Positions 590 through 64,000 of a stretch of DNA of 64,000 nucleotides are shown here, in pieces. Location: contig CM075988.1 of assembly GCA_038087875.1 (NCBI GenBank), positions 17,548,001 to 17,612,000 on the forward strand, given 5' to 3'. Positions within the stretch are counted from its first letter, which is position 1, and each line of letters starts with the position of its first letter. Origin of the DNA: Malacoraja senta (Eukaryota). The translations under genes were made by a program, and so were the position numbers. The notes under the pieces were generated by a model that was not told the origin of the DNA, searched no databases, and worked only from the letters and a program-made list of their open reading frames with translations.

Positions 590-787
590 TTTGCGTAGGA
601 AGGAATTGCAGATGCCGGTTTATACCGACGATAGATACAAAACGCTGGAGTAACTCAGCGGGACAGGCAGCATCTCTGGGGAGAAGGAATAGGTGACGTT
701 TCGAATCGAGCCCCGAAGTGTCACCTATTCCTTTTCTCCAGAGATGCTGCCTGACCCGCTGAGTTACTCCAGCATTTTGTGTCTATC
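590..787. mobile_element. Fold-back (inverted) insertion of the short Penelope-LTR-like repeat, with 10-bp TSD ATCAGATGCT
   Basis: Left arm (~630-700) is the reverse complement of right arm (~718-787). ATCAGATGCT occurs at 580-589 and 788-797. Confidence 0.7.
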
Positions 788-1122
788 ATCAGATGCTGTT
801 CACAGATGTGACAATCTCAACAATGGAGGCAACTGTGGATAAAACTAAACTTTGGGCTAAAATACAAATAAAGCATATGCAATAATGGCTAATAATAAAC
901 ACATTCGTAAGGTTCCAAGAAAAATGCATTCGGCTTCACCAGATATACATTATTTAAATTGAAACCTGAATAGCCAAAGGCATTTGAGAACCTCTGCAGA
1001 TGATTTAATGTCATTAATCTATGATATTGCAATGAATCACACTTTGGTGCTGGGAAGGTACTGATGTCAGTCGGCACCTAAGGTATGTCTGTCCATGTGC
1101 TGCAGAGAAAGAGGTGGCTGTG

Positions 1123-1960
1123 AGAACATAGAAACATAGAAAGTAGGTGCGAGAGTAGATCACCAGGCCCATCGAGCCCGCACCGCCATTCGCTCATGGC
1201 TGAACACTAAACAGACACCCTTACCCACAAACAGTAGACACAAGACACAGAACACAAGACACTACCCTCCCCTTTATATCGCTATCACCCCTCTCCACCC
1301 CAAGAACCGCGTGATCTCCTGGGGGAGGCAAAAAAACGGATAAAAACCCAGGTCCAATTCGGGGAAAAAATCCGGGAAATTCCTCTCCGACCCCAATCCA
1401 GGCGATCGACACTTGTCCAGGAGATCACTCAGGTCTTACTATACTAACCATACCTAGGTCCATATCCCTGCCCTCTCCCCGTAGCCCCTTATCCCCTTGG
1501 CAGCTAAAAAACCATCTATTTTAGACTTAAATATATTTAATGTTTCTGCTTCCACTGCTCCCTGGGGCAGTGAATTCCATAAATTAACCACCCTCTGGGT
1601 GAAGAAGTTCTTCCTCATCTCAGTTTTAAAAGAGCCCCCTCTTATTCTACAACTATGTCCCCTAGTTCTAGTTTCCCCGATCATTGGGAACATCCTCGGT
1701 GCATCCACCCGATCAAGGCCCCTCACGATCTTATATGTTTCAATGAGATCGCCTCTCATTCTTCTAAACTCCAAAGAGTAGAGTTCCAGCCTACTTAACC
1801 TTTCCTCATATGTCAATCCCCTCATTGCAGGAATTAATCTTGTAAACCTTCGCTGCACTGCCTCCAGGGCCAGTACATCCTTTCTTAAGTATGGACCCCA
1901 GAACTGTACACAGTATTCCAAATGTGGTCTCACTAATACTGTGTACAGCTGCAGCAAGAA
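1123..1960 (-). mobile_element. 5'-truncated CR1-type LINE (ORF2 C-terminus, 3'UTR, (TTCTATGT)n-type tail)
   Basis: ORF 1454..1957 has the CR1 C-terminal motifs LVRPHLEYCVQFW, LEAVQRRFTRLIP, RRMRGDLIETYKI. Tail repeat catagaaacatagaaa at ~1126-1142. Confidence 0.9.
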
Positions 1961-2464
1961 CCTATCTCTTCTTCCATTCCAACCACTCGGATAAATGGAC
2001 TGGATATGGATGTGAAGACGTGGCTCATCACCTTGGCTTGGGGGTAGGGTAGCACCAATCCAAAGGTCCGTTTTTCAGTGGAAGATTAGAAAAAGACTCC
2101 AATTGATATGGTAACTTTCATAATCCCCACAATGTCCTTAACTAGTCAATAAATTACTTTTCAGATGGGATTAATGTTAAAGAGTCATCCAGCACAGAAG
2201 CAGGCCCTTCCATCAACTATATTCATGCTAGACAATACAAATCTACTTTAATCCCATTTCCCAGCACTTGGCCACTGCATTTCAAAGGCTCATCTAAATA
2301 TTAAATGTTACAACAATACCGGTTTGCACCAACTCCTCAGACAATAAATTCCATTTTAACCGTCCACTTTATGAAACAAATTATTTGTCAAATCTCCTCA
2401 GAATCTCCTACATGACCAGATGGTCATGGACTCTTCTGCTAAGGGGAAAAGTGTCAAACCATAT

Positions 2465-4985: not shown

Positions 4986-5024
4986 AAACTCCTACCTATG
5001 AACTATGCATGTGTAGCATACAAT

Positions 5025-5395
5025 CCAGTGGTATGAATATTGATTTATCTAATTTCAAGTAACCCTTGCATCCCCTCTTTTTCCAACCCCCCCCCCACCC
5101 CCACACACGCACACCCTAGTCATTCTGCTAGTTTCACTGTTCATAATCCCTCGTTAACACCTCCTCCACGGCCAACAATGGACCATGGTGGGCTCTTTGA
5201 CCACCGGTGCCGGCTGATTTGTTCTGTACCTCTTCATTCCTCTAGTTTCCCTCTTCCCTGACTCTGTCTGAAGAAGGGTCTCGACCCAAAACGTCACCTA
5301 TTCCTTTTCTCCACAGATGCTGCCTGACCCGCTGAGTTACTCCAGCAATTTGTATCTACCTTCGGTGTAAACCAGCATCTGCATTTCCTTCCTAA
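5025..5395 (+). mobile_element. Penelope-like element 3' end / pseudo-LTR with mutated hammerhead core
   Basis: Shares atgaatattgattt..ctaa..ttcaagtaacccttgcatccc with the end of the GIY-YIG element at ~33050-33100. CTGAAGA..GACCC-AAAACGTC at 5268-5295 (GAAA changed to AAAA). Confidence 0.7.
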
Positions 5396-8300
5396 ATATA
5401 AACTGCCTTGATTGCACTAGGGATGTGGAGCTTTGTTTTTGTCTTTGCACTATATTGTTTGTTTTTATATGTTGAACTTCTTTTTGATGTGTATTAGGGT
5501 GTCTACTGAGTATTATGTTTACATATCTGTTGCGCTGCTGTAAATAAGAATTTCATGGTTCCATTTTGGGGCATCTGACAATAAAGCATTCTTGTGTAGG
5601 AAGGAACTGCAGATGCTGGTTTACACCGAAGATAGACACAAAATGCTAGAGTAACTCAGCAGGACAGACAGCATCTCTGGAGAGAGGGAATGGGTGACGT
5701 TTCGTGTGGAGACCCTTCTTAAGACTGAGGGTCAGGGAAGAGGGAATCTAGAGGTATGAAAAGGTGCAGAACAAATCAGAGCCGGCACTGATGGCCAAAG
5801 AGCCCACAATGGTCCATTGTTGGCTGTGGAGGAGGTGATCAGACTTAAACACGCTTGACTCTCTTGACTATTATCTTGCGTGCATGCTAATGAAAAGGCT
5901 CTAGATTATTGTAGCCAAGTGGAGTGTGGAAACATTGCACGCAGAGTAATTGTATAAGATTAAAAAATACTCGGAGATTTGGACAAAGGCAGCTGGAGAT
6001 GCCACCGTGTTTAAGAAGGAACTGCAGATGCTGGAAAATCGGAGGTAGACAAAAATACTGGAGAAACTCCGCGGGTGTGGCAGCATCTATGGAGCGAAGG
6101 AAATAGGCAACGTTTCAGGTCGAGACCCTTCTTCAGAGTCTGAGTTTCTCCAGCAATTTTTGTTTTCAGGAGATATGGTCGTGTTTGGCTTTGAGACTGA
6201 GCTCCCAGCGTCTGATGCGCCCACTAGCGCAGTTTTGGTAACCGCTGCAGCGCAAGGGTTACTCTCGGTCAAAATACTCCGCGGTTACTCCCGGTCACAG
6301 GCTGTTACCTGCCTCCAACCTGTAATGGCCCGCGGGAACCAGCTGAATAAAACCAGGATTTAGCAAAAATAAAACACGGATATACCGATACAATTCCATT
6401 CGCACCATAATAGCTGAAATATGGAACAATTTAACGAGGATACTGTGTGTTTACATATTCTGTTGTGTTGCTGCAACGTAAAATAATCTCATTGTTCCAT
6501 CTGGGGCATATGACAATAAAACACTCTGGACTCTCTTGACACAACCTATAATATTTATATTTTTATTGTACACTATCTCCATTTCAATGTGCATGCGTGT
6601 TCTCAATACATTGTCCCAAATATAAACAAAACCTAATTCGGCTGGACATTTTCGAATTTAATATTCATTTCAGAATATATTGCATTTTTTTACGGGGACG
6701 TGCAATATTTAAATGTGCAATATTTTCTTCGTAGGTGTATTAATTAAATAAAAAAAACATTTACTGCACCTTTCTATTCGGCGACAATGCAGAGATGAAA
6801 CACGAAGATGCCATAGCGCACATGCAGATCTGTCTCCTATTCCTGTTGCAGTCGCTTGGGGGGTTTTGAGATGGAGAAGGTTTGTTTATCAACCCCTATT
6901 CTATTTATTGTTACCGTCCCAGAGTTTTGAGGCAAGCGGACAAGTGAACAGGCTGCGGCTTGTGTCTTGTGTCTTCAATGGGGGGAGAATTACAGGATAC
7001 TGCCTTCCTCTCTTGCCTCTTTACAGGTGCACCGTTTCCTATTGTTCCTCTGGGAAGGAAGGCGTCGACTCTCGCTGAGTTTACAGTCCGCAGCTCTCGG
7101 CTGCAGCTTCAGCGCTGGCTATTTGACTATATATTGTCACTCCTCTCCGGGTACATCCTCTGCAAGCGGCTGCTGTGTGCAGTGAGCAAGATCGCCTCCA
7201 GAACACGGATGTGGTGGCAAAGTGTTGCTACGTTAATAATGTGGAGTGGAAGAAATACAACAAAGCGCTGGAGGAACTCAGCGGGTCGGGCAGCATCTGT
7301 GGAGGGGAATGGTCAGAGCATGTGTCGGGTCAGGAGCCATCTGCAGAGAGAAGAGTCCCATAGTTTGGGACTGGGGCCAGAATAAGACTGAACGGCCACT
7401 TTATACAAAGCCAAGTCACTTCAAATGATCTTCATTACCAAGAAGGATATATTTTCATCCAGAGTTGTAAATCTGTGGAATTCTCTGCCACAGAAGGCAG
7501 TGGAGGTCAATTCATTGGATATTTTCAAGAGAGAGTTCGATTTAGCTCTCAGGGCTAAATGAATCAAGGTATATGGGGGGAAAAGCAGGAATGGGATACT
7601 GATTTGGGATGATCAGCCATGATCATATTGAATGGTGGTGCTGGCTCGAAGGGCCGAATGGCCTACTCCTGCAACTATTTTCTATGTTTCTACCTAATAA
7701 TATGGAGCTTTGTATTTACAACCTATAGAGAATGTGAGTTATAAAGCCATACAGCACACAAACAGGCCCTTCGGCCCAACTTGCCCATGCCCATCAAGAT
7801 GCCCCATCTACGCTAGTCCCACTTGCCCGTGTTGGCCTCTAAACCTTTCCTATCCATATACCTGTTCAAACGTAACGACTGCATTTCAAGAAATCAAATA
7901 GGCAAATAAAATAAAACTGGCAAATGTAAGAGTGACTTTAAAGGTCTTTTTGTGATATAAACCCAGTAATTAAACAAGAAACCCACCTTACCTGTTCTGG
8001 TCTATGCATTTCTTAAATCCTACAAGAGTATTGTTGACGACTTTCCCTCTAAAGTGACCCTGCAAGTGATTTCATTGCATCCAGTTCATCATTTCAAGAT
8101 TATTTTCCATAAATAAACTTTATCCATGGAAAATGCACAATCCCAAAACAGTACATGTCTTTCATTATATACATATCATTGTCATGTCTATGCATTCACG
8201 ATGTTGTCAAGTCAATATATCTAGTCAATATAGTACAGGTGCCATCAAGTTCATACATCCTGTGTACAAAACACCAACCTGGATAGGCAATGCAATGCAG

Positions 8301-10282
8301 ACTGGACTTTGAAAGAGATATTAGAAATGGTGCTACTGTTTGTAGGTTTAAACAGACCAGAGCTATCCCTTCTCACAAAGTTGTGCATTTGGATCAGCTA
8401 CCAGCTCCCCAGCTTCCTCACCACATTGGAGTGGTCGCTAGAGTTTGTGTGCCGGGATCATAGAGAAACCTCCGAAGTGTAGGAGGGAAGGAAATACATT
8501 CAAGAGAGTCAAGAATCGAGAACGTTTAATTGTCCTATGTACCCGCTGGAGTTTAGATGGATGAGGGGGAATCTCATTGAAACCAAGCAGATCATGAGAG
8601 GCCTAGATAGAGTGGACGTGAAAAGGATGTTGCCAGTAATGAGAGAGTCTAGAACTGGAGGATTCAGCCTTGGAATAAAAGGAGGTACCTTTAGAATGGA
8701 GATGAGGAGGAATTTATTTAACTAGTGGATGGAATTCATTACCACAAATGGCTGTGGAAGCTAAGACATTGGGTATTTTTAAAGTGGAGATTGATAAGTT
8801 CTTGATTAGTAAGGGCAACAAAGGTTACGTGGAGAAAGCCGGTGAATTGGGTGAAAAATACATCAACCATAATCAAATGGCCAAGTAGATTCGATGGGCT
8901 GAATGGCCTAATGCTGCTCCTATGTCTTACGGTCTTATTTGCTACAACCTATTAATAATAACCACATATAAATATACAATAATCAATAGTGCAATCAATT
9001 AATAATCAGTAATCCTAGGTAACCCGACCATAATCGTACAAAACCAAAGTCCGTCAGGCAATCAAAACAAAGTCCATAGTAGATCATAGTTGCCGAGGTA
9101 GTAGTTAGTGTTGTGCAGTGTTCAAGACCCTCATGGTTGCTGGAAAGAAGCTGTTTTTTAACCTGTTTTCAAGCTCCTGAACCTTCTTCCCAAAGGTGGC
9201 CTGGGTGGCATGGGTCCTAGATGATCTTAGCTGCAGATCACTTCAATGGAGGGAAGGTCAGTAGCAATGATGGTCCGGACAATGTCTACCACTTCCAACA
9301 GCCTCCTTCATTCCTTTGTAAAATATGCAACTTCCACCACTTTACTGTAGGTGGTTAACTACATGTGAGATTTTTTTTAACACAACCATTAATTCAACAA
9401 TGGCAATACTTAAATCACATTGTTATTCCCTTTCCCTACTTGCAAATGTGATGAACTGTCGTCATGCTGCTGATGAGGGTACTCCCACTATGTTGTTGGA
9501 TAGGGAGAGAATATCAAAGAACAGCGATACGTTTCGAAGAGTGACATTCTCCTTGAGACCCTCTCAGTAAAATCCCCCAAACTCCAAGTACAGCACAAGA
9601 TAGACACAAAATGCTGGAGCAACTCAGCGGGGCAGGCAGCATCACTGGAGAGAAGGAATGAGTGACATTTCGGATCGAGACCCTTCTTCAGACTGGTACA
9701 GCAAGTTTTTTATACTCTTAAGACCAAAGAAACAGGGTGAGGCAGGCAAGAGACTGTGTATCTCACCAGCTGACAGATAAATTACTTAAAGTGGCATCTG
9801 ATGCTGCTGAATAAGAAAATGCGTGAATGGAGTTGGTGGGGGGGGGGGGGGATTTTGATTTAGTTCATGTGAAAGAGCATCCACGTGTTTGCCTAGGTGT
9901 TTCTGCTTTGAAAGTCTTTTAAGAAGTATGTACGTCTGTGTATGTATTATATCAGTCACTATGTGTAAGAAGGAACTGCAGGTAGTGGTTTACACCAAAG
10001 ATAGACATAAAAAGCTGGAGTACCTCAACGGGTTAGGCAGCATCTCTGTAGAAATGGAATAAGTGACGTTTCGTGTGGAGACCCTTCTTCAGTCTGAAAT
10101 GTCACCTATTCCTTTTCTCCAGAGATGCTGCCTGACTCGTTGAGATACTCCAGTTTTTTATGTCTAAACCAGATTAACTGCTGGGTTAACATCACATGGT
10201 TCTGCGAGAAGACCTCATGTATAGGAAACTGGTGACCTCTGGTGGAAAAATAATGCATAGCAGAACTGCACCTTTGATTAGT

Positions 10283-10310
10283 CTGAAGAAGGGTCTTGAC
10301 CCGAAACGTC
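10283..10310 (+). ncRNA. Minimal type-I hammerhead ribozyme core in Penelope-LTR-like repeat
   Basis: CTGAAGA-A-GGGTC-TT-GACCC-GAAA-CGTC: CUGANGA box, stem II, GAAA box, palindromic ACGU, GUC triplet. Confidence 0.6.
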
Positions 10311-10467
10311 ATGCATTCATTCTCTCCAGAGTTGCTGCCCGTCCCGCTGATTTACTCCAGCTTTTTTTGTCTATCTTCACCTTTGATTATTTGTGTCTAC
10401 CCGAATTTGTGCTACTCGTTGAATATGAGCAATCTGAGCACCCATTCAAAGAACAGAGGTGATTAGG

Positions 10468-13775: not shown

Positions 13776-14588
13776 ATTCAATCAGTCTCAAGTGGGTGGC
13801 AATGGTCTCAACTTGTGAATCAGAATAATGATAGATTAATTCTACTTTGGAGACAAGCACACAATCCAGGATGATATAGAGTCATAGAGTGATACAGTGT
13901 GGAAACAGGCCCTTCAGCCCAACTTGCTCACACAGGCCAACATGTCCCAGCTACACTAGCCCCACCTGCCTACGCATGGTCCATATCCCTCCAAACCTGC
14001 CCTATCCATGTACCTGTCTAACTGTTTCTTAAACGTTGGGATAGTCCCAGGCTCAACTATCTCATCTGACAGCTTGTTCCATACACCCAGCACCCTTTGT
14101 GTGAAAACGTTACCCTTCAGATACCTATTAAATCTTTTCCAATTTACCTTGAACCTATGTCCTTTGATCCTCGATTCCCCTATTCTGGGCAAGAGACTCT
14201 GTGGCAAGGGTGTTTGAGCAGGAATTCTGTGATTGAGGGGGAATGCGTGGAGGTATGGGATGGGGCAGCAGGTGGAGGAAAGGGTTCCAACGGAGAGAAG
14301 AATTGAAAGAGCACCTACTTGAGTTGGGTGTAGAACAATATGCTGGGACGTATACATGGAAGACCTCGTCAAAGTGTGTATCTCCAGAGCAAGCAATACT
14401 ATAAAAGCCTGACTGGTCTGAGAGTGCCCAATAAGGGGTACTTATGGGAGCAATGTGAACCAATTTCTCCCAGCAACATCCTTGATGAACACTGTACAGA
14501 AAATGATCTTATTCTGAGCCAGTCTAACAAAGGAAACAGACAAAAAGCTGGAGTAAAAAGGCGGCATCTCTGGAGAGAAGGAATGGGT

Positions 14589-33388: not shown

Positions 33389-33424
33389 CCACAAAAATTC
33401 AAATAAAAGTACAGATGTTCCTCA

Positions 33425-49662: not shown

Positions 49663-51607
49663 TCAAAAGTTTCTTAAACACCACTATCGTATCTGCCTCC
49701 ACCACCACCCCTGGCAGCGCAGAATGGTCTCATCCCGAGACGTCGCCCATTTCTTCTCTCTAGAGATGCTGCCTGTCCAGTTGCGTTGCACCAGCTTTTT
49801 GTGTCTATCTTTATACCAACATCTGCACTTCCTTCCTACAAACCTAATGACAAATGTACTACAAATTTTGTTCATGGCAAGCTCTCAAAAATTAGCAGTA
49901 TAATTTTAACAATTTATCTGTAACATTTAAGGAATTAATTTTCTCAGGATTTTAGGTATAGTAATTGCCCTGGATGAACAAAAGCAACCCTTGAAAATCA
50001 TTTACATGCCCGGATGTGGCTTCATACCTCTGAGGAAGTGGATATCAGGCAAGTAATGTCATGCCAAATTCCAATGAAACAATCAGCTTATTTTACCAAA
50101 AGGGATGAAAACAATGAAGCTTAGATTCACTTTGACGTTACTAAAAATAAAGGAATTTCAGTTGTGACGAACCAGTTAAAGGAAGCTTTTTTTTTCAATT
50201 GCAATTATATGGCACTTTTTGCAGTCTAAAGTTTTCTGAACTTTAGCATCAGATGCAATTTTTATACTCAGATCTTTATAATGAGACTTGAATACACAGT
50301 GTGTGTGCAATCAACTGTGCCATCTCTGAACTGGAATGATTGAATATTTCTAATCCTTCATCTTGTTTCTCAAGTCATAGAGGCATACAGCAGGGAAACA
50401 GGCCCTTCAGCCCAATTTGCCCATGCCGACCAACATGCCTCATCTACATTAGTTCAACCTGACTGCATTTAGCCCATATCCATCGAAACCTATCCTATCC
50501 ATGAACCTGTCTAAATGTTTCTTAAACATTGTAATAGTACCTGCCCCAACTACCTCCTCCAGCATCTCATTCTATATATCTACCAAGCTTTATGTTAAAA
50601 AGTTACACCTTAGTTTCCAATTAAATCTCCCCCGCTCCCCCTCACCTTAACTATATGTTGTCTGGTTCTTGATTCTCCTAATCTGGGCATTTACCCTATT
50701 TATCCCTCTCATGATCTTTTACATCTCTATGTGACAGTCTTCTGAAGAACTCTATATGAAGATTGCAAATGGATGACTCACACACAAGTCAGCGAGCTGA
50801 GACCGGAAGGTTGTGGCAAACGTAGGTAGATGAATGCTTGAACTATTGTGAAATTCTCTTGCAAGAGAATTATACTGCAGACCAAATATAACGTATACAG
50901 TGTGGCAGTGTTCATACCACTGGTGTTGATTTCTCTAACTTCAAGTAATCCTAGCATTCCCTCTCTCTGTGTCTCTCCACCACCCTAGTTCTCTGACTAG
51001 TTTCACTATCCTAATTCACTAATTCTAATATTAATCAGTCCAGAGCAGAATTAGGTGTTCATTAATTGGTTTCTACTAAAGGAAATTGAACAGTTTTGCA
51101 AAAATAAACTCTGTGACATCAGCTATAGTAGTTTGCTTTTCCTGTCACAGATTATCACTGCCTTATACTAAAGTGAAATGAGAGAACATTTAATTTAGTT
51201 CATCTGATGCTAAAATTTGCCACAGTTCATTCAGTAAGGTGATGCAGCTTTTGAGAAAACGGTGACCTTGTTTCCAATCACATATAAATGACATTGAACT
51301 GAAATCTAATTGACACTTACATCTTAATAACTGATCCTTTGCAAAAAGAAAAAAAAGATTAAAAATGCACATCATTAAGACAGTATCTGTTCGTAATAAG
51401 GATGTTTAGCACTTTTTATTTTCTCAGTCTCTCAGCATTACTTAAAAAACACAGATGAGGGAACAGGTGATGTACGTGATGCAAAATATAAACTGTTTGA
51501 GGAACTCAGCGGGTCAGGCAGTATATGTGGAGGGAAAAGGATGGACAACAGTTTGGAATTGGACCCTTCTTCAGACTGAGGGAGAGGGGAGATAGCTAGC
51601 AGAAAAA

Positions 51608-52630
51608 GTCATAGTCTTTCACCCAACTTTCCCACACCGGCCACATGTCCCAGCTACACTAGTCTAACCTGCCTGCATTTGGCCCATATCCCTTTAAACC
51701 TGTCGTAGCAAGAGACTCTGTGCATCTACCCGATCTATTCCTCTCATGATTTAATACACCTCTATAAGATCACCCCTCACCCTCCTACGCTCCAAGGAAT
51801 AGAGATGGCCTGTTCAATCCCTCCCTAGACCTCAGACCCTCGAGACCTGGCAACATACATCTTCTCTGTACCCATTCCAGCTTGACAACATCTTTCCTAT
51901 AACATAGTGCTCAGAACTGGACAAAATACTCTAAATGTGGCCTCACCAACTTCTTATATAACTGCAACATGATCTCCCAACTTCTATACTCTGACTGATG
52001 AAGGCCAAAAGCCTTTTTGACCACCCTATCTACCTGCGACTCCACCTTTAAGGAAACATGAACTTGCACTCCTCGATCCCCAGGTCTACAAAACTCCCCA
52101 GACCCCTACCTTTCACTGTGAAGGTCCTGCCCATGTTACACCTCACATTTCTCTGTATTAAATTCTATCAACCATCCCTCAGCCCATCTGGCCAACAAAT
52201 CATGATCCTGCTGCAATTTTTGACAACCTTCTTCACTGTCTGCAATACCACCCACTTTTGTATCATCTGCAAACTTGCATGTATGTTCTCATCCAAACCA
52301 TTGATATAGATGACAGACAATAACAGGCCCCGTACCAAACCCTGAGGCACACCACTAGTCACAGGCCCCCAGTTCGAGTAGCAGCCTTCCACCATCACCC
52401 TCTGCTTCCTTCCATGAAACCAATTTTCTATCCATTCAGCTACCTCTCCTTGAATCGCATGCGATCTAACCTTCCAGAGCAGCCTACCATGTGGAACCTT
52501 GCTGAATGGTTTGCTGAAGTCCATATATACAGCATCTACAGCTCTGCCCTCATCAACCTTTTTGGTCACATCTTCAAACACATCAATCAGATTTGTGAGA
52601 CATGACCTTCCACATACAAACCCATGATAT
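51608..52630 (-). mobile_element. CR1 LINE fragment carried in the tandem-duplicated unit (paralog ~59125-60690)
   Basis: ORFs 52168..52656 and 60225..60638 are nearly identical CR1 RT remnants. Confidence 0.85.
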
Positions 52631-53739
52631 TTTTGCAACCATGAACTGCTTTCCATTCAGCTCCTCTGTGGAAAATTCCTATCAGCACTCAGTACTGGTC
52701 CTACAACACCTAGCATCCCAACTCAAGATGAGGGAGGTCACATATGTCTTCCTGGTTAACCTGGAAGTATTTGTGATGGGGAAATGGACAAACGACATTG
52801 ACCCTTCACCTGAAACATCATCTGTCCATTCCCTCCACAGATGCTGCTTGTCCTGCTGAGTTTGTTTTTTGTAATTTGTTTTTTTTGCTCAAGATTCCAG
52901 CATCTGCAGACTCTTGTGGCCCCAACTAAACCCAACAGCTGATTGCCATGGTCATAGTTTTCTCAATGCTACTTTTTATGTACAGTTTTACTGTGACTCT
53001 GTAGACCTGGGGTATAATCCATTTGGATCAATCCAATCAAGACTAGTATATTGCGAGGTCTCATGAGTTGCTTGATGAAAGATCATTCATCTGAAGCATT
53101 AACAGTTTCTCACCACAGATGTTGCCAGACCTGTTTACTTCCAGCATTTTCTTTGTTTTCATTTCTGTTTTCAACCGGATATACTTTACTGAAGGCAGGC
53201 AAATGGGACTGGCTTCAATAGACATCTTGGTCAGCACAGATGAGTTGGGGTCGAGAGGGCTATTTCCATGCTGCATAATTCTATGACAATTATTTTATTA
53301 TTTTTTAAGCGATGGCTAATATAAATAATTTAGTGAGCAAATAAGTAAGATCTTAAGACCAGAACAACAGTTGGCACTATACAGCAGCTCAATTTTCTTG
53401 ACAAATTTTGTTAAGAAGGAAACTATGAAAAGTTAGGAATTAATACAAGTTGGGCAGCATTCTGTGATGAGAAAAATAGTTAACATTTCTGGTCAATAAT
53501 CTTCATCAGACTTGAACAGGCCACAGACTTAAAATGTGAATGCTCTGTTTTTCTCCACAGATGCTGCCTAACCTGCTATATATTTCCATTAGTTTGCTTC
53601 TTCAACTGATTTTAAGCATTGGCCTTTAATGTTTATAAGCGAATGACTTTGGAGAAGTATAAACTCATAAAACTGACGTTATAAAACTACTTTGAAAAAT
53701 ATATTTTAAAAAAAATAAAATAAATAAAACTACTTTGGA

Positions 53740-53828
53740 GAAATTGAAACTGAAACTCAAAAAATTCAAAATAACGTTCAGATGTTGCCCAACCTGACGG
53801 CAGTGTTACTTCCTGGACCACGGTGAGT
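53740..53828 (+). promoter_or_regulatory. Distal promoter and exon 1 of Gig2 copy B: triple-GAAA ISRE and donor
   Basis: GAAATTGAAACTGAAACT at 53740-53757; GTGAGT at 53823-53828. Confidence 0.65.
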
Positions 53829-54590
53829 AACACCATGATCTCCGCTCCTTCGTGTGTGTGATCCAAACTCTAAGTGGTGAAAGAATCAAGGGGAAGAGCA
53901 GAACATTCTTACACATTTACGGGTTGTAATATTGAGTGAAGTTGAAATTTTAACAGGGGAAACTTGAAAACTACAAAAACAAAAAGCTATGAACAAGAGC
54001 AAGGGCGTGGGACTAATTGCATAACTGCGGCTTTCTCCCTGGGATATTATCTTTAAGGCTGTCATGTCGTATTCCTGGGAAAATGGGACAGTGTTAAAAA
54101 TATTGATGTCTTCATGCACCAGTTTCTGTCAATAAGACTCTGAACGGCAGAGGACTGAATCAACAAATTTGTACAGTCGTTTCCTGTTATTGCAGTCTCA
54201 CTAGCGTTGAATTTGGATTTCCTTTGGAACATCAATTGTGAATTAATTCCTGAATTATTATATAATTGTAAGCAAAAATAATAAGCGGTGTACTAGGTGA
54301 AACACACTTTAATGTTATCAGTAACAGGGAGCAGAGAGACACACAACTTGCGGAAAATGTTAGTGTGCTTACTCCCGTGCCTTTAAGTTTCCATTTCAGT
54401 ACTTTTCCTATTCAGAAAATCAACTGTTGAAACTTGTACCCAAAGTGGCCAGTTCTGATGTAAGAACTCAACCTCTAAAGTTAATTCAGCTTTTTCGTTC
54501 CATAGATGTTTTCTGATTTTTTTTTAAATACTGGTATTTTACACATATTACAACTCTGCGTAACTTGTTATTGAAATGAAATTTTTGTGC

Positions 54591-55036
54591 TCGGTCCTGG
54601 AGTCTATGTCAGTAGGGACCTCCAAAAAGCTAGCAGGTATCCCCTGGACATCGATCCCAGCCAAAGGATTGTGCTTAAGTTGCTAGTCATTGTGGGGAAA
54701 GTCTAAAAGATAGATTATCAAGGGCACCCACTAGAGAAGACATGGCGCAGTGAAGGCTATGACACTGCTTGCTGCGCTCCATTCTGTGGGATGGTTGAAA
54801 GTGGTTTGGAAGAGGATTGTGTCTGGGATCCCAAAAGAATAAAAGTTATTGATGTATTTCGCCCAAGAAATAATCAGTATAACCAGTGGATCTCCACCGA
54901 ATACTTCTGATCCTACTGGGGCAATGGGGTAATAGTTAGAAGATTTGGATAATGGTAATCTTGGGTGTAACAATGGTGGTGGGAGCTCCACGTATGACAA
55001 TCAAACTTAGGGTTCGGGGGGAGAAAGCTCCTATTT
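54591..55036 (+). pseudogene. gig2: 5'-truncated Gig2 fragment (3' ~2/3 of CDS plus start of 3'UTR) inserted in the intron of copy B
   Basis: Reads LGPGVYVSRDLQKASRYPLDIDPSQRIVLKLLVIVGKV*KIDYQGHPLEKTWRSEGYDTACCAPFCGMVESGLEEDCVWDPKRIKVIDVFRPRNNQYNQWISTEYF*. Premature TAA at 54704-54706; lacks the ATG and the HGT motif. Confidence 0.9.
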
Positions 55037-55588
55037 AGAAACATTGGTCGGATGTACTAAGGTTAAACTATTGGCAAATTAGTTGAGTCTAGTTTAGTTT
55101 TTAATCAGTTTATTGTCACATATACGAGGAGCTGTGAAAAGATTTTTTGTTGCGTGTTATCCAGTCAGCGGAAAGACTACATGCTTAAAATCAAGCTGTC
55201 CACAGTGCAGATACAGGATGAAAGGAATAACATTTAGTGCAAGATAAAGTCCAATAGGGTCTCCAAGGAGGTAGACGGTAGCTCAGGACCGTGCTCTACT
55301 TAGTGATACTAATTGGTGATAGCAGCTGGGAAGAAACTGTCCCTAAATCTGGAGGCTTTCACACTTCTGTACCACCTGCATAAAGGGGAGAGGGAAGAAA
55401 CTAAGACACGCTCTTGATTATGCTGGTGGCCTTGCCGAGGCAGTGTGAAGTGTTGATTCGAAGACATGAGTCAAAATATACATATATATATAGAAAGATA
55501 AGTAAATTTTTGATCCATTCCTCTGGAAGCAATTTTTTTTTTTACTATCACAAAACCAGATTTGTTGCTCAAATTTATTCTCTGCATA

Positions 55589-55606
55589 GAAAAGGAAACT
55601 GAAAAC
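55589..55606 (+). promoter_or_regulatory. Proximal triple-GAAA ISRE-like element (copy B)
   Basis: GAAAAGGAAACTGAAAAC followed by TATATAAA at ~55632-55639. Confidence 0.55.
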
Positions 55607-55764
55607 CCATAACCCAGCTTATACTTAAATATATATAAACCACAACATACAAGTCAAGACATTTATTAATTGATATATTGGTCAGGGCAATATCATAAGG
55701 CATTGAATACCTTTACAATATTTAAGATTGTGGTTGAGCAGGAGCCAGGGTATGTTTTTCCAAG

Positions 55765-55911
55765 TGGTGCAACATACCTTGAGGAGATTTCGCAGTGGAG
55801 TGAAAGACTTCTTCATTCTGAAGAAGGGTCTTGACCCGAAACATCACCCATTCCTTCTCTCCAGAGATGCTGCCTGTCCCACTGAGTTACTCCAGCATTT
55901 TGTGTCTACCT
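55765..55911 (+). mobile_element. Hammerhead-core short insertion with 14-bp TSD, shared by copies B and C, absent from A
   Basis: TATGTTTTTCCAAG at 55751-55764 and 55912-55925; paralog 63479-63625; empty site at 44581-44600. Confidence 0.8.
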
Positions 55912-56423
55912 TATGTTTTTCCAAGAATCTGTTTGGCAGATTCACCAGCATGGAAAAACCTGAGGGACATATGGAGACACAAGGAAATGCAGATGCTTGA
56001 GCTAAAAACAAAGTACTGATTACAAAGTATAAAGTATTAATTTGCCAGGTGAGGCAGCATTTGTGGTGGAACATGGATGGATCTTCTTTTGGGATCTTGT
56101 CGGGATCTATCTTCTTACTGATGGAGCAGGGACGAGGAAGCTGGAGAGAAGGGGTGGGGCAAAAGCCCAGTAAGTGATAAGTGAGGGAAGAGGAATCGAT
56201 TGAGAGATGGTTAGAGATCATGATAAAGACTAGAGGTGAAATAAAGAGGAAATGGTAAAAGAAAAGAAGTGGATCAGTGAAACGTAAAAGGGGACAACGT
56301 AAAAGGAGGGCGAAATCGGAGAGGGAAATATGATCAGATTTGGTTAAGAATTAAGGACAGAATTAATAACTCTCTTACTTTTATTTTTGTCAAAAGGCAA
56401 GTTTTGAAATTCAACTCATTACC

Positions 56424-56924
56424 ATGGCCTATTCTATGCAAAATATATGGGCTGAACAAGATGGACCTGGTTTTAATCCACCGTGCCTCGAAAGTCTTGT
56501 GTCACCAGTTGAAGACAAGATCTATGTGATGTACCATGGAACCAGTGCTGCAAGTGCACAGGCCATTTGTAAAACTGGTTTCCGTCAATCCAAGGATGGC
56601 ATGCTCGGTCCTGGAGTCTATGTTAGTAGGGACCTCCAAAAAGCTGGCAGGTATCCCCTGGACATCGATCCCAGCCAAAGGATTGTGCTTAAGTTGCTAG
56701 TCAATGTGGGAAAAGTCAAAAAGATAGATTATCAAGGGCACCCACTCCAGATGACATGGCACAGAAAAGGCTATGACACTGCTTGGTGCCCTCCAAAGAG
56801 TGGGATGGTTGAAAGTGGTTTGGAAGAGGATTGTGTCTGGGATCCCAAAAGAATAAAAGTTATTGATGCAATTCCCCCCCAAAAGAATCAGTGTAATCAG
56901 TGGATCTTCACCAAATACTCCTGA
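56424..56924 (+). CDS. gig2: Gig2-family PARP-like protein, copy B, 166 aa
   Basis: Same motifs as copy A and colinear without gaps; acceptor AG at 56395-56396; ACCATGG start context. Confidence 0.93.
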   Translation: MAYSMQNIWAEQDGPGFNPPCLESLVSPVEDKIYVMYHGTSAASAQAICKTGFRQSKDGMLGPGVYVSRDLQKAGRYPLDIDPSQRIVLKLLVNVGKVKKIDYQGHPLQMTWHRKGYDTAWCPPKSGMVESGLEEDCVWDPKRIKVIDAIPPQKNQCNQWIFTKYS

Positions 56925-59367
56925 TCTTACTGGGGCAATGGGGTAATAGTTAGAAGATGTGGATAATGGTGATCTTGGGTGTAACAATGGTGGTGGGAGC
57001 TCCATATATGACAATCAAACTTAGGGTTCCTGGGGAGAAAGCTCCTATTTTTGAAGATGGCCCTCAGTATGCTTTAGAGAGTAATAGAAACGGATTAAGT
57101 GGGTTATCCCATAACCTACCAATGTTCATCGTGTAAATCTTGTGAAAAATTGGTTGTTTTGGTGATATATTGGAGGTTGCTATAACCGGGAAAGCAGATA
57201 ATTAGGAAGATCAGCATCAGCTGCAGTGGGAATAAAACAAGTTCGGGAAATAAAGCAAATAATTCTACTCAGACAATAACATTAAAAAATCAGGTGTATA
57301 AAGTGTCAGATCATGTTCTTTGAAATGCAACCTCTCAAAGCAATCACTGTATTATTCTGTAGCAACAACTTTTGTGAGCTGGAAAACCATTGATCACTGT
57401 ACTCTGTGTCTTGTACTACATTTAATAAAAATCATTGGCCACTTTTTAGTTGTTTTGTTGTATTTATGGGATAACATGCCTCCTCAGTGGAGAAGGTACC
57501 ACCATTATATGAGATACAAGCCATATACAAAACATTGTTCACAACGTTATGTGACTCTTCCGCCTATATTTCTCCCTCTTGTCTCTCCTTTCATCTAAAT
57601 CCCTCCCCCGGGTGTCTCCTTCCACCTATCTGCCTTCCAACACTATCCATCCCTCTGGCTTTACATTTCACTCCTCTTCATCTAACCTTCCTCACCTGCA
57701 TCCACCTATCACTTGCCAGGCATTGTTCTGTCTCCACTTTATTTTCCTAGCTATCCCCTACTACAATCAATCTGAAAAAGGTCTCTAACCCAAAATGTCG
57801 TCTATCACTTCCCCCCACAGATGATGCCTGACCTGCTGATCCACTCCAGCACTTTGTATTTTGATCAAAATTCCAGCATCTGCATTTTTTGTGGCTCCAA
57901 TATGTAACTCTTTTTCTTCTCACCACAGGCCTACTGCGCACCTCTCCATCTATAACCAATGGCACTACTTTCAGCCATTTCCATTTCGATAGTAAAACTT
58001 GTTCAGTTAGTTTACCTGTCTCTCAGAAAACTCATTCAAACCCTCACATTCCTCTCATTTTATGCCAGTTGTTCAATTCCTTTCCTACCATAACCCTGTC
58101 ACACCTTAGTTTCCTATTAAAACTACCCCCCCCCCCCCAACCCCCCTCTCTCACTTTAACTATATGTTGTCTGGTTCTTGATTCCCCTGCCCTGGGCATT
58201 TATCCTATTTATCCCTCTCATAATCTTATAAACCTCTATAAGGTGACAGTCTTCTGAAGAACTCTATATGAAGATTCCAAATGGATGACTCACACACAAG
58301 TCAGGAGTGATTGTGGCAAACAAATGTAGATGAATGCTTCAACTATAGTGAAATTCTCTTGTAATAATTGTGGATCAGTTTTGTACTGCAGACCACATAT
58401 ACTGTATACGCTGTGGCAGTGTTCATACCACTGGTGTTGATTTCTCTAACTTCAAGTAATCCTAGCATTCCCTCTCTCTGTGTCTCTCCACCACCCTAGT
58501 TCTCTGACTAGTTTCACTATCCTAATTTACTAATTATAATATTAATCAGTCCAGAGCAGAATTAGGTACCCATTAATTGATTACTACAAAAGGAAATTGA
58601 ACAATGTGGTTTTGCAAAATTAAACTCTGTGCCATCAGCTACAGTAGTTTTCTTTTCCTGTCACAGATTATCACTGCCTTATACTAAAGTGACATGAGAG
58701 AAAATTGAATGTAGCTCATCTATGTTAAATTTGCCACAGTTCATTCAGTAAGGTGATGCAGCTTTTGAGAAAACTTTGACCTTGTTTCCAATCACATATA
58801 AATGACATTGAACTGAAATCTAATTGACACTTACATCTTAATAACTGATCCTTTGCAAAAAGAAAAAAAAGATTTAAAAATACGCATCATTAAGACAGTA
58901 TCTGTTCGTAATAAGGATGTTTAGCACTTTTTATTTTCTCAGTCTCTCAGCACTACTTAATAATCACAGATGAGGGAACAGGTGATGTACGTGATGCAAA
59001 ATATAAACAGTTTGAGGAACTCAGCGGGTCAGGCAGTATATGTGGAGGGAAAAGGATGAGCAACAGTTTAGAATTGGACCCTTCTACAGACTGAGGGAGA
59101 GGGGAGGTAGCTGGCAGAAAAAGTCATAGTCTTCCACCCAACTTTTCCACACCGGCCAACATGTCCCAGCTACACTAGTCTAACCTGCCTGCATTTGGCC
59201 CATATCCCTATAAAAACCTGTCATACCAAAAGACTCTGTGCATCTACCCGATCTATTCCTCTCATGATTTTATACACCTCTATAAGATCACCCCTCACTC
59301 TCCTGTGCTGCAAGGAATAGAGCCAGCCTGTTCAACCTCTCCCTAAAGCTCAGAACCTCGAGACTTG

Positions 59368-59916
59368 TGTGGAAGTTAATAATGATTTAACTCACAAAAT
59401 GGATTCCGCTGAAACTAAGACAGGCTTTCACCTTCTTGTATTAAGTTGCAAAGCCAGCGAAACGCACTAACCTTTGCTTTCAGTACATTAACAAAGCTAG
59501 CAGACTGTTGATGTTCCCTTTCCAATAACATAAGCGAGATAACAAGCACAGCTTCATGAATGTCTCCTCTATAACATAAACATTAGAGAGAATTCAGCCT
59601 GACCCTTGTTCTATAAGATTATGATGTGCGTCATAAGTAGAAAAAATCAAAAAGCTTGTTCTGCAGAAATATAACTTTCTCATATAACCATATATGGCTA
59701 ACCCTTCGTCTGTCAGAAGAACCTGTCAATCATAAGAAGCTGTCAATCTTAAGGATCTGTCAATCTTAAGAAGCAAGATGCTGTACTATGCTTTGTAGAT
59801 AACATATTCCTGAATCGTCGATTAGTGGGGTATATATACATGTAGTGAGATCATTGTCCCTTTGTGTGGGACTTCTCTTTATAGTCTGTTAACAGTATAA
59901 TGTAAAGAGTTTCACA
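59368..59916 (+). mobile_element. Possible solo LTR (TG...CA) inserted in a CR1 fragment, only in the B-C spacer
   Basis: Termini TGTGGAA / TTTCACA; three 17-bp direct repeats at 59723-59773; TATATATA at ~59831; absent at the paralogous site ~51845-51865; no clean TSD. Confidence 0.45.
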
Positions 59917-61871
59917 TCTTCTCTGTACCCATTCCAGCTTGACAACATCTTTCCTATAACATAGTGCTCAGAACTTGTCAAAATACTCTAAATGTGGCCT
60001 CAGCAAAGTTTTATATAACTGCAACATGACCTCCCAACTTCTATACTATGACTGATGAAGGCCAAAAGCCTTTTTGACCACCCTATCTACCTGCGACTCC
60101 ACCTTCAAGGAAACATGTACCTGCACTCCTCAATCCCTACGTTTACAACACTGCCCAGAGCCCTACCTTACACTGTGAAGGTCCTGCCCATGTTACACCT
60201 CACATTTCTCTGTATTAAATTCTATCAACCATCCCTCAGCCCATCTGGCCAACAAATCATGATCCTGCTGCAATTTTTGACAACCTTCTTCACTATCTGC
60301 AATACCACCCACTTTTGTATCATCTGCAAACTTGCATGTATGTTCTCATCCAAACCATTGATATAGATGACAGACAATAACAGGCCCCGTACCAAACCCT
60401 GAGGCACACCACTAGTCACAGGCCCCCAGTTAGAGTAGCAGCCTTCCACCATCACCCTCTGCTTCCTTCCATGAAACCAATTTTCTATCCATTCAGCTAC
60501 CTCTCCTTGGATCCCATGCGATCTAACCTTCCAGAGCAGCCTATCATGTGGAACCTTGCTGAATGGTTTGCTGAAGTCCATATATACAACATCTACAGCT
60601 CTGCCCTCATCAACCTTTTTGGTCACATCTTCAAACACCTCAATCAGATTTGTGAGACATGACCTTCCACATACAAAACCATGATATTTTTACAGCCATG
60701 AACTGCTTTCCATTCAGCTCCTCTGTAGAAAATTCCTGTCAGCACTCAGACCTGATCATACAATACCAAGCATCCCAACTCAAGATGAGGGCGGTCACAT
60801 ATGTCTTCCTGGTTAACCCTTCACAAACTGATACAAGGATCTACAACCTGATCACAAAGCAAACTGATAGGAGAACTCAACAGGCCTGGAAGTATTTGTG
60901 ATGGGGAAAAGGACAAACAACATTGACCCTTCACCCGAAACATCATCTGTCCATTCCCTCCACAGATGCTGCCTGGCCTGCTGAGTTGTTTTTTGTAATT
61001 TGTTTGTTTTTCTCAAGATTCCAGCATCTGCAGACTCTTGTGGCCCCAACTAAACCCAACAGCTGATTGCCATGGTCATAGTTTTCTCAATGCTACTTTT
61101 GTCATGTACGGTTTTACTGTGACTCTGTAGCCCTGGGGTATAACCCATTTGGATAAATCCAATCAAGACAAGTATACTTGCGAGGTCTCATGAGTTGCTT
61201 GATGAAAGATCATTCATCTGAAGCATTAACAGTTTCTCACCACAGATGTTGCCAGACCTGTTTACTTCCAGTATTTTCTTTGTTTTAATTTCTGTTTTCA
61301 ACCGGATATACTTTACTGAAGGCAGGCAAATGGGACTGGCTTCAATAGACATCTTGGTCAGCATAGATGAGTTGAGGGCGAGAGGGCTATTTCCATGCTG
61401 CATAATTCTATGACTATTATTTTATTATTTTGTAAGCAATGGCCAGTATAAATTTTATGTTTTAATTTTAATTTCTGATAAAAACAACATTTTAACAACT
61501 GTGAATCATTAGTGAGCAAATGAGTAAGATCTTAAGACAGAGTGTGTTGGCACTATACAGCAGCTCAATTTTCTTGACAAATTTTGTTAAGAAGGAAACT
61601 ATGAAAAGTTAGGAATTAATACAAGTTGGGCAGCATTCTGTGATGAGAAAAATAGTTAACATTTCAGGTGAATAACCTCCATCAGACTCGAACAGACCAC
61701 AGACTTAAAATGTGAATGCTCTGTTTTTCTCCGCAGATGCTGCCTAACCTGCTATGTATTTCCATTAATTTGCATTTTCAACTGATTTTAAACATTGGCC
61801 TTTGATGTTTATATGCGAATGAATTTGGAGAAGTATAAACTCAAACACTGACGTTATAAAACTACTTTGGA

Positions 61872-61960
61872 GAAATTGAAACTGAAACTCAAAAAATTTA
61901 AAATAAAGTACCGATGTTGCCCATCCTGATGGCAGTGTTACTTCCTGGACCAAGGTGAGT
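61872..61960 (+). promoter_or_regulatory. Distal promoter and exon 1 of a third Gig2 copy (C)
   Basis: GAAATTGAAACTGAAACT at 61872-61889; AAG|GTGAGT at 61955-61960. Confidence 0.65.
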
Positions 61961-64000
61961 AACACAATGATCTCTGCTCCTTCGTGTGTGTGATCCAAAC
62001 TGTAAGTGGTGAAGGAATCAAGGGGAAGAGGAGAACTTTCTTACACATTTAATATTAATATTAATTAATATTAATATTGAGTGAAGTTTAAATTTTAACA
62101 GGGGAAACTTGAAAACTACAAAAACAAAAAGCTATGAACAAGAGAAAGGGCGTGGGACTAATTGCATAACTGCGTGCTTTCTCTCTGGGATATTATCTTT
62201 AAGGCTGTCATGTCGTATTCCTGGGAAAATGGGACTGTGTTAAAAATATTGATGTCTTCATGCACCAGTTTCTATCAATAAGTCTCTGAACGGCAGAGGA
62301 TTGAATTAACAAATTTGTACAGTCGTTTCCTGTTATTGCAATGTCACGAGAGTTGAAGTTGGATTTCCTTTGGAACATCAATTGTGAATTAATTCCTGCA
62401 TTATTATATAATTGTAAGCAAAAATAATAAGCGGTGTACGAGGTGAAACACACTTTAATGTTATCAGTAACGGGGAGCAGAGAGACACACAACTTGTGGA
62501 AAATGTTAATGTGCTCACTCCCGTGCCTTTAAGTTTCCATTTCACTCCTTTTCCTTTTCAGAAAATCATCTTTTGAAACTTGTGCCCAAAGTGGACAGTT
62601 CTGATGTAAGAACTCAACCTCTAAAGTTAATTCAGCTTTTTCATTTCATAGATGTTTTCAGATTTTTTTTTAAATACTGGTATTTTACACATATTACAAC
62701 TCTGCGTAACTTGTTATTGAAACAAAATTTTTGTGCAAATTTTGAAAGGGATAGAAACATTGGTCGGATGTACTAAGATTAAACTATTGGCAAATTAGTT
62801 GAGTTTAGTTTAGTTTATTCAGTTTATTGTCACATATACGAGGAGCTGTGAAAAGCTTTTTTGTTGCGTGTTATCCAGTCAGCGGAAAGACTATACATGC
62901 TTTAAATCAAGCTGCCCACTGTACAGATACAGGATGAAAGGAATAACATTTAGTGCAAGATAAAGTCCAATAGGGTCTCCAAGGAGGTAGACGGTAGCTC
63001 AGGACCGTGCTCTACTTAGTGATACTAATTGGTGATAGCAGCTGAGAAGAAACTGTCCCTAAATCTGGAGGTTTTCACACTTCTGTACCACCTGCATGAA
63101 GGGGAGAGGGGAGAAACTAAGACTCACTCTTGATTATGCCAGTGGCCTTGCCGAGGCAGTATGAAGTGTTGATTCGAAGACATGTCAAAATATACATATA
63201 TATATTAACAAAATAAGTACATTTTTGATCCATTGCTCTGGAAGCAATTTTTTTTTTTACTATCACAAAACCAGATCTGTGCTCAAATTTATTCTCTGCA
63301 TAGAAAAGGAAACTGAAAACCCATAACCCAGCTTATACTTAAAAATATATAAACCACAACATACAAGTCAAGACATTTATTCATTGATATATTGGTCAGG
63401 GCAATATCATAAGGCATTGAATACCTTTACAATATTTAAAATTGTGGTTGAGCAGGAGCCAGGGTATGTTTTTCCAAGTGGTGCAACATACCTTGAGGAG
63501 ATTTCGCAGTGGAGTGAAAGACTTCTTCATTCTGAAGAAGGGTCTCGACCCGAAACATCACCCATTCCTTCTCTCCAGAGATGCTGCCAGTCGTGCTGAG
63601 TTACTCCAGCATTTTGTGTCTTCCTCATGTTTTTCCAAGAATCTGTTTGGCAGATTCACCAGCATGGAAAAACCTGAGGGACATATGGAGACACAAGAAA
63701 ATGCAGATGCTTGAGCTAAAAATCAAAGTACTGATTACAAAGTATAAAGTATTAATTTGCCAGGTGAGGCAGCATTTGTGGTGAAACATGGATGGATCTT
63801 CTTTTGGGATCTTGTCGGGATCTATCTTCATACTGATGGAGCAGGGACGAGGAAGCTGGAGAGAAGGGGTGGGGCAAAAGCCCAGTAAGTGATAGGTGAG
63901 GGAAGAGGAATCGATTGAGAGATGGTTAGAGATCATGATAAAGACTAGAGGTGAAATAAAGAGGAAATGGTAAAAGAAAAGAAGTGGATCAGTGAAACGT
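61955..64000 (+). other. Predicted intron of Gig2 copy C; coding exon expected just beyond the window
   Basis: Colinear with 53823-56285 apart from the pseudogene insert; the window end aligns with 56285, 139 nt before copy B's ATG. Confidence 0.7.

Follow-up and report, generated by a model that had tools for sequence, protein, structure and literature searches.

Short hammerhead-bearing repeats in a skate genome: 3' ends of Neptune-type Penelope-like elements whose copies begin just before the ribozyme

We analyzed a 64,000-nt window of the genome of the skate Malacoraja senta (GenBank assembly GCA_038087875.1, contig CM075988.1, positions 17,548,001 to 17,612,000 of the forward strand), in which a short repeat with a minimal hammerhead ribozyme motif is abundant. 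Judged from its sequence context, this repeat is the 3' terminal module of Neptune-type Penelope-like elements (PLEs), a pseudo-long terminal repeat (pLTR) consisting of the hammerhead, a short end, and a 35-nt tail. Its copies begin at a sharp 5' edge just before the hammerhead and span the predicted cut site. The template was therefore uncut, and the limits of the mobile unit are not set by ribozyme cleavage. We lean toward the view that the short copies are mostly by-products of autonomous PLEs, formed when reverse transcriptase (RT) initiates within the 5' pLTR of a transcript that is uncut and probably capped, and extends to its 5' end.

The repeat as a PLE terminus

A strict descriptor (CUGANGA, one extra base, a 4-bp stem, GAAA, a palindromic pair, U, and H) matched the whole window at six sites, 10283, 20343, 26946, and 34214 on the plus strand and 14616 and 6136 on the minus strand. 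No match was obtained across 200 first-order Markov windows of 64 kb. The six sites are exactly the intact cores listed in a preliminary description of this DNA, and all of them carry one extra base and the ACGU palindrome. Scanning the sequence also reproduced its mutated cores at 5268, ~9664, ~10065, 55818, and 63532, and added two on the minus strand, at 26932 and ~5723. The cores at 55818 and 63532 represent a single insertion that was duplicated together with the surrounding sequence (96% over 1254 bp). Trained on 14 copies, an nhmmer model detected 49 pieces of the repeat in the window and none in the reversed window; 15 of the 49 were segmental or tandem paralogues and were removed before counting, leaving 34 non-redundant pieces. 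An Rfam scan of the window reported no hammerhead, even at E values up to 5–10, which is the expected outcome because the motif has no loop 3, and the Rfam microRNA matches in the window correspond to the inverted repeat pairs. The repeat pattern had no match in the metagenome and viral contigs searched.

The preliminary description had suggested a Penelope pLTR, and this reading is supported by two copies in which the repeat follows, on the same strand, a PLE open reading frame (ORF) end and its 3' untranslated region (3'UTR). In our reference copy (20185–20473, plus strand), the last PLE codons (…PSGMNIDFSK and stop) are followed by a pyrimidine-rich 3'UTR, the hammerhead, the short end (~20436), and the 35-nt tail, and the nhmmer model aligns from position 2 to 136. 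The copy at 5020–5397 (plus strand) contains an ORF end, a second type of 3'UTR, a hammerhead with a mutated G12 (5268), and the tail. By blastn, the ORF ends of these copies match the end of the PLE at 32059–33252 with 75% identity (74.6% against the ORF end at 33044–33113) and 85% identity, respectively. Additionally, a 5'-truncated PLE 3'UTR with hammerhead (~5723, G5 mutated) and tail lies at 5593–5837 on the minus strand, 89% identical to 5158–5265.

The repeat has two 3' ends, at model positions ~95–103 and 135–136, which delimit a tail of ~35 nt. In all five inverted units that combine a tailed arm with a second arm (590, 6008, 9962, 26805, and 38743), the tail is present on one arm only. 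The spacing of the two ends matches the PLE tail length of 30–40 bp (Craig 2021, PMC8557442) and the pair of internal RT start sites that delimits the tail of an anole PLE in vitro, where uncut RNA was described as the main substrate (Frangieh 2024, PMC11167929).

The element at 32059–33252 (plus strand, target-site duplication (TSD) of 7 bp) is a dead, 5'-truncated Neptune-type PLE. It retains the C-terminal part of the RT, a C-x4-C-xx-C linker, the GIY-YIG domain, the 3'UTR, and the short end; its hammerhead is deleted. It aligns by tblastn to residues ~477–810 of RT plus GIY-YIG proteins of 750–950 aa (E down to 9e-43), and the best among the named relatives comes from Leucoraja erinacea (68% identity). 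Its long relatives carry the RT, DKG, a C-x(3-5)-C-xx-C linker (16 of 16), and GIY-YIG. The linker of the window element, CNHKRCNTC, conforms to the CX2-5CxxC motif between the RT and the endonuclease (EN), a marker of Neptune and Nematis PLEs (Craig 2021, PMC8557442). This copy had been proposed as the mobilizer of the repeats. It is a relative of the mobilizer and not the mobilizer itself, because it has no RT core, contains frameshifts and stops, and has lost the hammerhead. ORF pieces detected by tblastn are confined to two regions of the window (~32–33 kb and 36 kb), and the RT core was found nowhere in it. A protein search with the linker piece gave no match, nothing for a PLE protein was found among PDB sequences, and Pfam gave no score to the window's own PLE pieces. 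The insertion lies in an older terminal repeat of the same kind (31926–32053 and 33259 onward). Older diverged families of the module occur at 7250, 17387, 31926, 44649, 46442, 51478, and 52805; they mostly retain CTGA(A/T)GA, and several are preceded by a pyrimidine-rich sequence of their own.

Exact flanking repeats were sought around 19 insertion units. TSDs of 10–14 bp were detected at six of them: the four already proposed, which proved real (590–787, 10 bp; 26805–27037, 14 bp; 34214–34307, 13 bp; 55765–55911, 14 bp), and those at 10280 and 16209. The unit at 9597 has 8 bp, and 11 of the 19 have 6 bp or less; only 5 of 600 random spans reached at least 10 bp. Segmental duplications of 78–96% identity (33250–34023, 44581–46772, and 50602–64000) provided empty sites, namely a single target copy for the 55765 insertion at 44581–44594 (plus strand) and two empty sites for the 32059 PLE at 53576–82 and 61752–58. 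No empty site was found in the window for 34214, where the paralogy stops near 34150, or for 49721. Based on the TSDs and the empty paralogous sites, the short copies inserted as units. The earlier claim that the repeat moves as its own TSD-flanked unit therefore holds for the insertion of short copies with their own TSDs, which are probably not a separate element.

Among the four units with previously noted TSDs, only 34214–34307 (plus strand) is a clean solo, a 94-bp copy of subfamily B with an intact core (TSD 34201–34213 and 34308–34320). Further solo copies lie at 10281–10377 (plus strand, intact core at 10283; TSD of 12 bp, 10269–10280 and 10378–10389), 9596–9695 (minus strand, starting at CAGT, TSD of 8 bp), and 14533–14619 (minus strand, intact core at 14616–14589, no exact TSD longer than 5 bp). 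The unit at 590–787 is a head-to-head inverted pair with one tailed and one untailed arm, both devoid of CUGANGA (TSD 580–589 and 788–797), and 26805–27037 is an inverted pair of subfamily B with a mutated core at 26932 (minus) and an intact one at 26946 (plus; TSD 26791–26804 and 27038–27051). A pair at 9962–10167, in which no TSD was found, is centered on a palindrome at the 5' edge. At 6008–6163 (minus strand), a tailed arm with an intact core (6136–6109) carries an inverted stub on its 5' edge, with no clear TSD, and the tailed copy at 16214–16333 (plus strand, TSD of 13 bp) is folded back at the ACGT palindrome, leaving a 14-bp stub. An older inverted pair at 38743–38959, with a direct repeat of 12–13 bp at its ends by eye, was copied within a larger tandem unit to 41736–41954 and 43520–43737; the region 37329–44219 consists of such units of ~1.7–3 kb, each with an inverted PLE-end pair (mutated core) and C/T-rich tracts. 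The unit at 55765–55911 (plus strand; duplicate at 63479–63625) combines a short copy bearing the mutated core at 55818 with 50 bp of other sequence on its 5' side. These 50 bp (55765–55815, inside the TSD and 5' of the hammerhead) have no other occurrence in the window than the one in the duplicate, and at their end the start of the hammerhead is repeated as a short inverted copy.

Solo copies could also arise as solo LTRs do, when the pLTRs at both ends of a full-length insertion recombine and the TSD is kept. This process predicts the identical boundaries and TSDs, and solo pLTRs have been ascribed to recombination or deletion (Arkhipova 2013, PMC3846280). We consider it improbable here, as it leaves the inverted pairs unexplained and the ORF pieces are restricted to the two regions named above. 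Moreover, the repeats are only ~100–135 bp long, which is short for efficient recombination.

Copy starts, the cut site, and the origin of short copies

The cut site corresponds to model position 33/34, so that a template cut there would yield copies starting at 34. Of the 34 non-redundant pieces, none starts in the model interval 30–41. Twenty pieces have their start at positions 2–5; seven of these run on into UTR-like sequence and 13 do not. The 13 edge starts lie 0–4 nt before CUGA (binomial on 12, P ~1e-8 to 1e-13), and at 9597, 10280, and 34214 the TSD directly abuts the edge.

A second view of the edge came from public contigs placed on 20170–20500 at 80% likeness, ~199,000 from each of two runs, X1 and X2, which belong to two studies and bear two organism labels. 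Among the loose-end positions listed, contigs stop matching before 20340 in 1067 (X1) and 1412 (X2) cases and before 20341 in 1033 and 1309 cases. The flanks of these loose ends are unrelated and AT-rich (agreement 0.31–0.32). The last consensus letter before the edge is G at all four (two positions, two runs), where the flanks would predict A or T. No loose end at 20371 was present among the six positions listed per run. The loose end at 20338 reflects the second 3'UTR family. A step in summed depth at 20338 (2.5M to 25M in X1) was discarded as a measure of the copy ratio, since the 3'UTR families join there and contig overlap inflates it.

The edge falls within TCAGTC (20338–20343, plus strand), an initiator-like string that is also part of the interrupted palindrome TCAG-T-CTGA. 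An extra G at the 5' end of a retrocopy usually reflects copying of the cap. The junctions thus point to A20340/G20341 as a putative RNA start. This location is consistent with the transcription of Drosophila Penelope, which is described as starting within the upstream pLTR (Schostak 2008), and an Inr-like TCACT has been pointed out in rotifer pLTRs (Arkhipova 2013, PMC3846280). Our literature search found no report of copy 5' ends clustering at the hammerhead. Two other candidates were set aside. A 3' splice site (CAG/TCTG) as the cause of the edge disagrees with the TSDs, which abut the edge without exon sequence, and with the preceding letter, G and not A or C. If GAAACGT were a downstream promoter element of the Drosophila type, its spacing would be ~3 nt off.

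We propose the following route for the short copies. The module comprises a putative start site, the minimal hammerhead, the short end at ~+97, and the tail end at ~+134. Autonomous tandem PLEs would be transcribed from a promoter in the upstream pLTR, starting between TC and AGT, 2–3 nt before CUGA. The PLE RT-endonuclease would nick AT-rich DNA and begin cDNA synthesis at the short end or the tail end, as the two 3' ends suggest, and the tandem transcript would carry both RT start sites twice. Initiation in the 3' pLTR would produce 5'-truncated copies that keep the 3'UTR or ORF. Initiation in the 5' pLTR would instead lead to run-off at the RNA 5' end after ~97 or 134 nt, giving solo copies, and the cap would often be copied as an extra G. 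Fold-back at TCAG-T-CTGA or ACGT, or use of a second template, would generate the inverted pairs and occasional head-to-tail dimers, and staggered nicks create the TSDs of 7–14 bp.

Such by-products should share lineages with UTR-linked copies. In a tree of 27 copies, this is the case for subfamily A, whose solos are intermixed with copies attached to the PLE 3'UTR. Subfamily B forms a clade (support 0.94) separated from A by 21 model columns, and all six of its copies on the tree are solo or inverted. Some solos, above all those of B, might therefore belong to a self-standing, non-autonomous pLTR family resembling short interspersed nuclear elements (SINEs), with an internal promoter and with tailed copies re-copied in trans by the PLE protein. 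An internal promoter is described for Penelope (Schostak 2008), pLTRs are reported to be sufficient in trans in a rotifer (Arkhipova 2013, PMC3846280), and non-autonomous Chlamys PLEs are known (Craig 2021, PMC8557442). We regard such a family as rather unlikely: the A solos form no separate clade, ORF-linked B copies could lie outside one window, and the anole PLE is reported to require RNA ~55 nt downstream of the RT start (Frangieh 2024, PMC11167929), which short-ended solos do not have.

Alternatively, every copy might be initiated in the 3' pLTR, and its 5' edge would mark a hot spot of truncation or fold-back at TCAG-T-CTGA, or of RT drop-off after hairpin unwinding, with no transcription start involved. 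The inversions at 9962, 26805, 38743, and 6008 are centered on this palindrome and that at 16227 on ACGT, palindromes at inverted junctions have been interpreted as self-priming (Arkhipova 2013, PMC3846280), and the copies at 34214 and 10280 share AGT or A as microhomology with the target. On the other hand, the clean solos at 9597, 10280, and 34214, with TSDs abutting the edge, contain no inversion, and a hot spot poorly accounts for thousands of junctions with unrelated flanks at two adjacent bases, preceded by G. We judge this alternative unlikely, slightly more so than a separate family.

The contigs also contain rare head-to-tail dimers that share the same 5' edge. Joints from 20432 (short end) back to 20340–42 occur in 27 + 24 + 16 = 67 contigs of X1 and 38 + 26 + 12 = 76 of X2, and joints from the tail end back to 20340–42 in 16 and 13. 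Another joint, from 20377 back to 20340, is a 38-nt head-to-tail duplication of the hammerhead alone with an extra G between the units (12 contigs in X1, 6 in X2) and constitutes a natural minimal dimer.

The presence of the short-end joints in both runs would fit a true retrozyme, whose tandem units self-cleave, circularize, and are reverse-transcribed as circles, and pLTR-derived retrozymes are reported from one chondrichthyan (Li 2026, bioRxiv 10.64898/2026.07.22.740005). Non-LTR retrozymes are likewise non-coding, hammerhead-bearing, and pLTR-related, with TSDs longer than 4 bp, and monomers are known (Cervera 2020, PMC7229834; Li 2026). They are described, however, as tandem repeats of ~150–450 bp with canonical hammerheads and circular RNAs, whereas the units found here are dispersed, 92–134 bp long, or arranged in head-to-head pairs. 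The window has no tandem head-to-tail array of the repeat, and the joints amount to tens of contigs among ~199,000. Canonical type I features (helix I of ~6 bp, contacts between loops 1 and 2) are absent: helix I has 2 bp, and Rfam gave no match. Furthermore, the copy ends are unpermuted and do not lie at the cut site. A retrozyme is thus very improbable, and the suggestion of a "retrozyme-like non-autonomous element" in the preliminary description finds no support, given the missing arrays, the minimal core, and the intermixing of A solos with 3'UTR-attached copies.

Several observations weigh against explaining the short copies as by-products of initiation in the 5' pLTR. By tblastn, no full-length element with a pLTR at both ends is present in the window, B has no autonomous partner there, and the tree supports within A are low. 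The putative RNA start is deduced from DNA junctions. Edge starts were sorted by eye from pyrimidine content and scores, and as the model begins at the 5' edge, old copies with an unrecognized 3'UTR were possibly misfiled among them. Contig counts bound the cut-site junctions only to fewer than ~1,000 per run, because six loose-end positions were listed per run and counting was saturated. The G before the edge is the commonest consensus letter, given without frequencies, and fold-back stubs ending in CAG could equally place AG there. X1 is possibly the window's own source and hence possibly not independent. Finally, helix II and helix I are paired in 84% and 72.5% of cells, respectively, with covariation matched by 151–261 of 500 shuffles.

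Hammerhead structure and folding

The reference hammerhead (20343–20370, plus strand) is a minimal type I motif consisting of CUGAAGA, an extra A, stem II GGGU(CUCG)ACCC, GAAA, and the palindromic ACGU, with a predicted cut after C20370. The core elements CUGANGA, GAAA, and UH together with helix II, found in the six strict copies and in none of the control windows, bear out the proposed PLE-type minimal hammerhead. Stem II is present in both subfamilies, as previously noted, although a 4-bp helix closed by a CUCG or UUCG loop represents it better than a drawing in which the loop has 2 nt; between the subfamilies it differs by a one-sided change from U-A to U-G. Helix I comprises only 2 bp.

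The core is more conserved than its surroundings, whose equality would have spoken against a hammerhead. At non-CpG positions, the modal base occupies 233 of 245 core cells and 232 of 283 neighboring cells (Fisher P = 3e-6, overstated owing to the relatedness of the copies and to the anchoring of the alignment on the core). Within subfamily A, differences number 2 of 98 in the core and 72 of 1004 in the neighbors, a contrast inflated for the same two reasons. The CpG positions of the core decay (G12 in 20 of 29; 8–15% in run X1), which counts against function in these copies, as do the 2-bp helix I and the lack of covariation above shuffles in helices I and II.

ViennaRNA predicted a competing structure. 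In the minimum free energy (MFE) fold of 20345–20382 (plus strand), GAAGAAGGGU pairs with bases after the cut site, forming a hairpin that would sequester the core. The GAAGAAGGGU hairpin was predicted for three of six copies whose folded sequence reached at least the short end, as well as for the tailed 20340 form, and this sequestering fold was predicted in both subfamilies. The probability of stem II was ~0 in all six folded cases; in 44-nt pieces, stem II appeared in the MFE structure of one of the six intact copies. In 20 copies, 72 of 80 cells of the competing helix are paired, and its covariation score was reached by 8 of 500 shuffles, a level attainable by chance among relatives. Cofolding of a dimer did not yield a double hammerhead as the MFE structure. 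The hammerhead is thus probably held off by the competing hairpin in these models, and cutting would need a dimer or the PLE protein. For comparable motifs, no cleavage by monomers and little by dimers has been published (Cervera & de la Pena 2014, PMC4209133), and the anole PLE ribozyme is described as protein-assisted (Frangieh 2024, PMC11167929).

Known systems, neighboring features, and implications

The minimal hammerhead, the tail, the inverted arms, the TSDs, and the solo pLTRs have each been described before. Metazoan PLE hammerheads share the core, the extra base 9/10.1, G10.1-C11.1, the palindromic 15.2-16.2, and the lack of loop 3, and those of the fish elements Xena, Poseidon, and Neptune are mostly single and dispersed, with some opposite-strand pairs, as here (Cervera & de la Pena 2014, PMC4209133). 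Helix II has 4 bp here versus 7–8 in Schistosoma, and helix I has 2 bp as in D. virilis. The available text of that survey names no cartilaginous fish and does not map the 5' ends of copies. In the literature searched, we found no account in sharks, skates, or rays; Repbase and Dfam were outside its scope and may already hold such families.

PLE insertions are known with tails, inverted arms, junction palindromes, TSDs of 8–10 bp, and solo pLTRs (Craig 2021; Arkhipova 2013; Schostak 2008). Complex insertions of EN-containing PLEs, for which 5' truncation, an inverted pLTR, and a 30–40 bp tail on one arm are reported, share with the present copies the one-tailed inverted arms, the junction palindromes, the TSDs, and the CX2-5CxxC linker (Arkhipova 2013, PMC3846280; Craig 2021, PMC8557442). 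The copies described here differ in that mostly only the terminal 100–230 bp are present and that their 5' edge, located at the hammerhead, is sharp. Poseidon_Ac of Anolis shares in vitro the two internal RT starts that define the tail, the uncut template, and a weak, assisted ribozyme. It belongs, however, to the Poseidon clade, its hammerhead overlaps the ORF start, and its published account, in the portions available, reports no short solos ending at a transcript start (Frangieh 2024, PMC11167929). Were the window typical, its six intact motifs in 64 kb would correspond to ~100,000 per gigabase, an extrapolation from one window; 126,247 type I hammerhead motifs are reported for the axolotl (Cervera 2020, PMC7229834) and ~9,000 minimal motifs for Xenopus (Cervera & de la Pena 2014, PMC4209133).

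Three other features of the window were observed. At 47180–47256 (minus strand), a look-alike of the HDV-like ribozymes (HDV for hepatitis delta virus) scored 23 bits with the Rfam CPEB3 model (gathering threshold 35; E 0.11 window-wide). Its P1 (6 bp, first pair G-U) and P2 (7 bp, AGCAGAA/UUCUGCU) are complementary, P3 is broken, and it has a single copy in the window. Short ORFs at 45036–45581 and 56370–56924 (plus strand), with a third, partial one at ~54489–55036, match the PARP catalytic domain (E 3e-6) and lie in a cluster of segmental duplicates; we presume that they resemble the fish gig2 genes. Fragments of reverse transcriptase of the long interspersed nuclear element (LINE) type, which we take to be CR1-like, lie at 27406–28785 (minus strand) and 34516–35187 (plus strand; RVT_1 E 4.5e-28 and 2e-9), along with many shorter pieces.

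For the PLE hammerhead, cutting and circularization of the template have been proposed, but in one in vitro study cutting was unnecessary. The ends of many natural insertions described here show no relation to the cut site and cluster at a probable start of transcription, which lends genomic support to the in vitro result. We tentatively propose, as a possibility short of an established account, that the PLE transcript of skates and rays is capped 2–3 nt before the hammerhead, and that RT initiation in the first pLTR makes each autonomous transcript a source of ~100-bp, SINE-like retrocopies headed by a hammerhead, with intact motifs numbering on the order of 100,000 per genome should this window be typical. 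Some of these, such as B, may spread by their own promoter, and a conserved hairpin would keep the ribozyme off. If this is true, the genome preserves a record of transposition from uncut RNA and shows, with single-base precision, where PLE transcripts start. The 5' edge offers an exact target for 5' rapid amplification of cDNA ends and mutagenesis. It also suggests a simple way in which an autonomous PLE could give rise to abundant short repeats with hammerheads, the proposed raw material of retrozymes.

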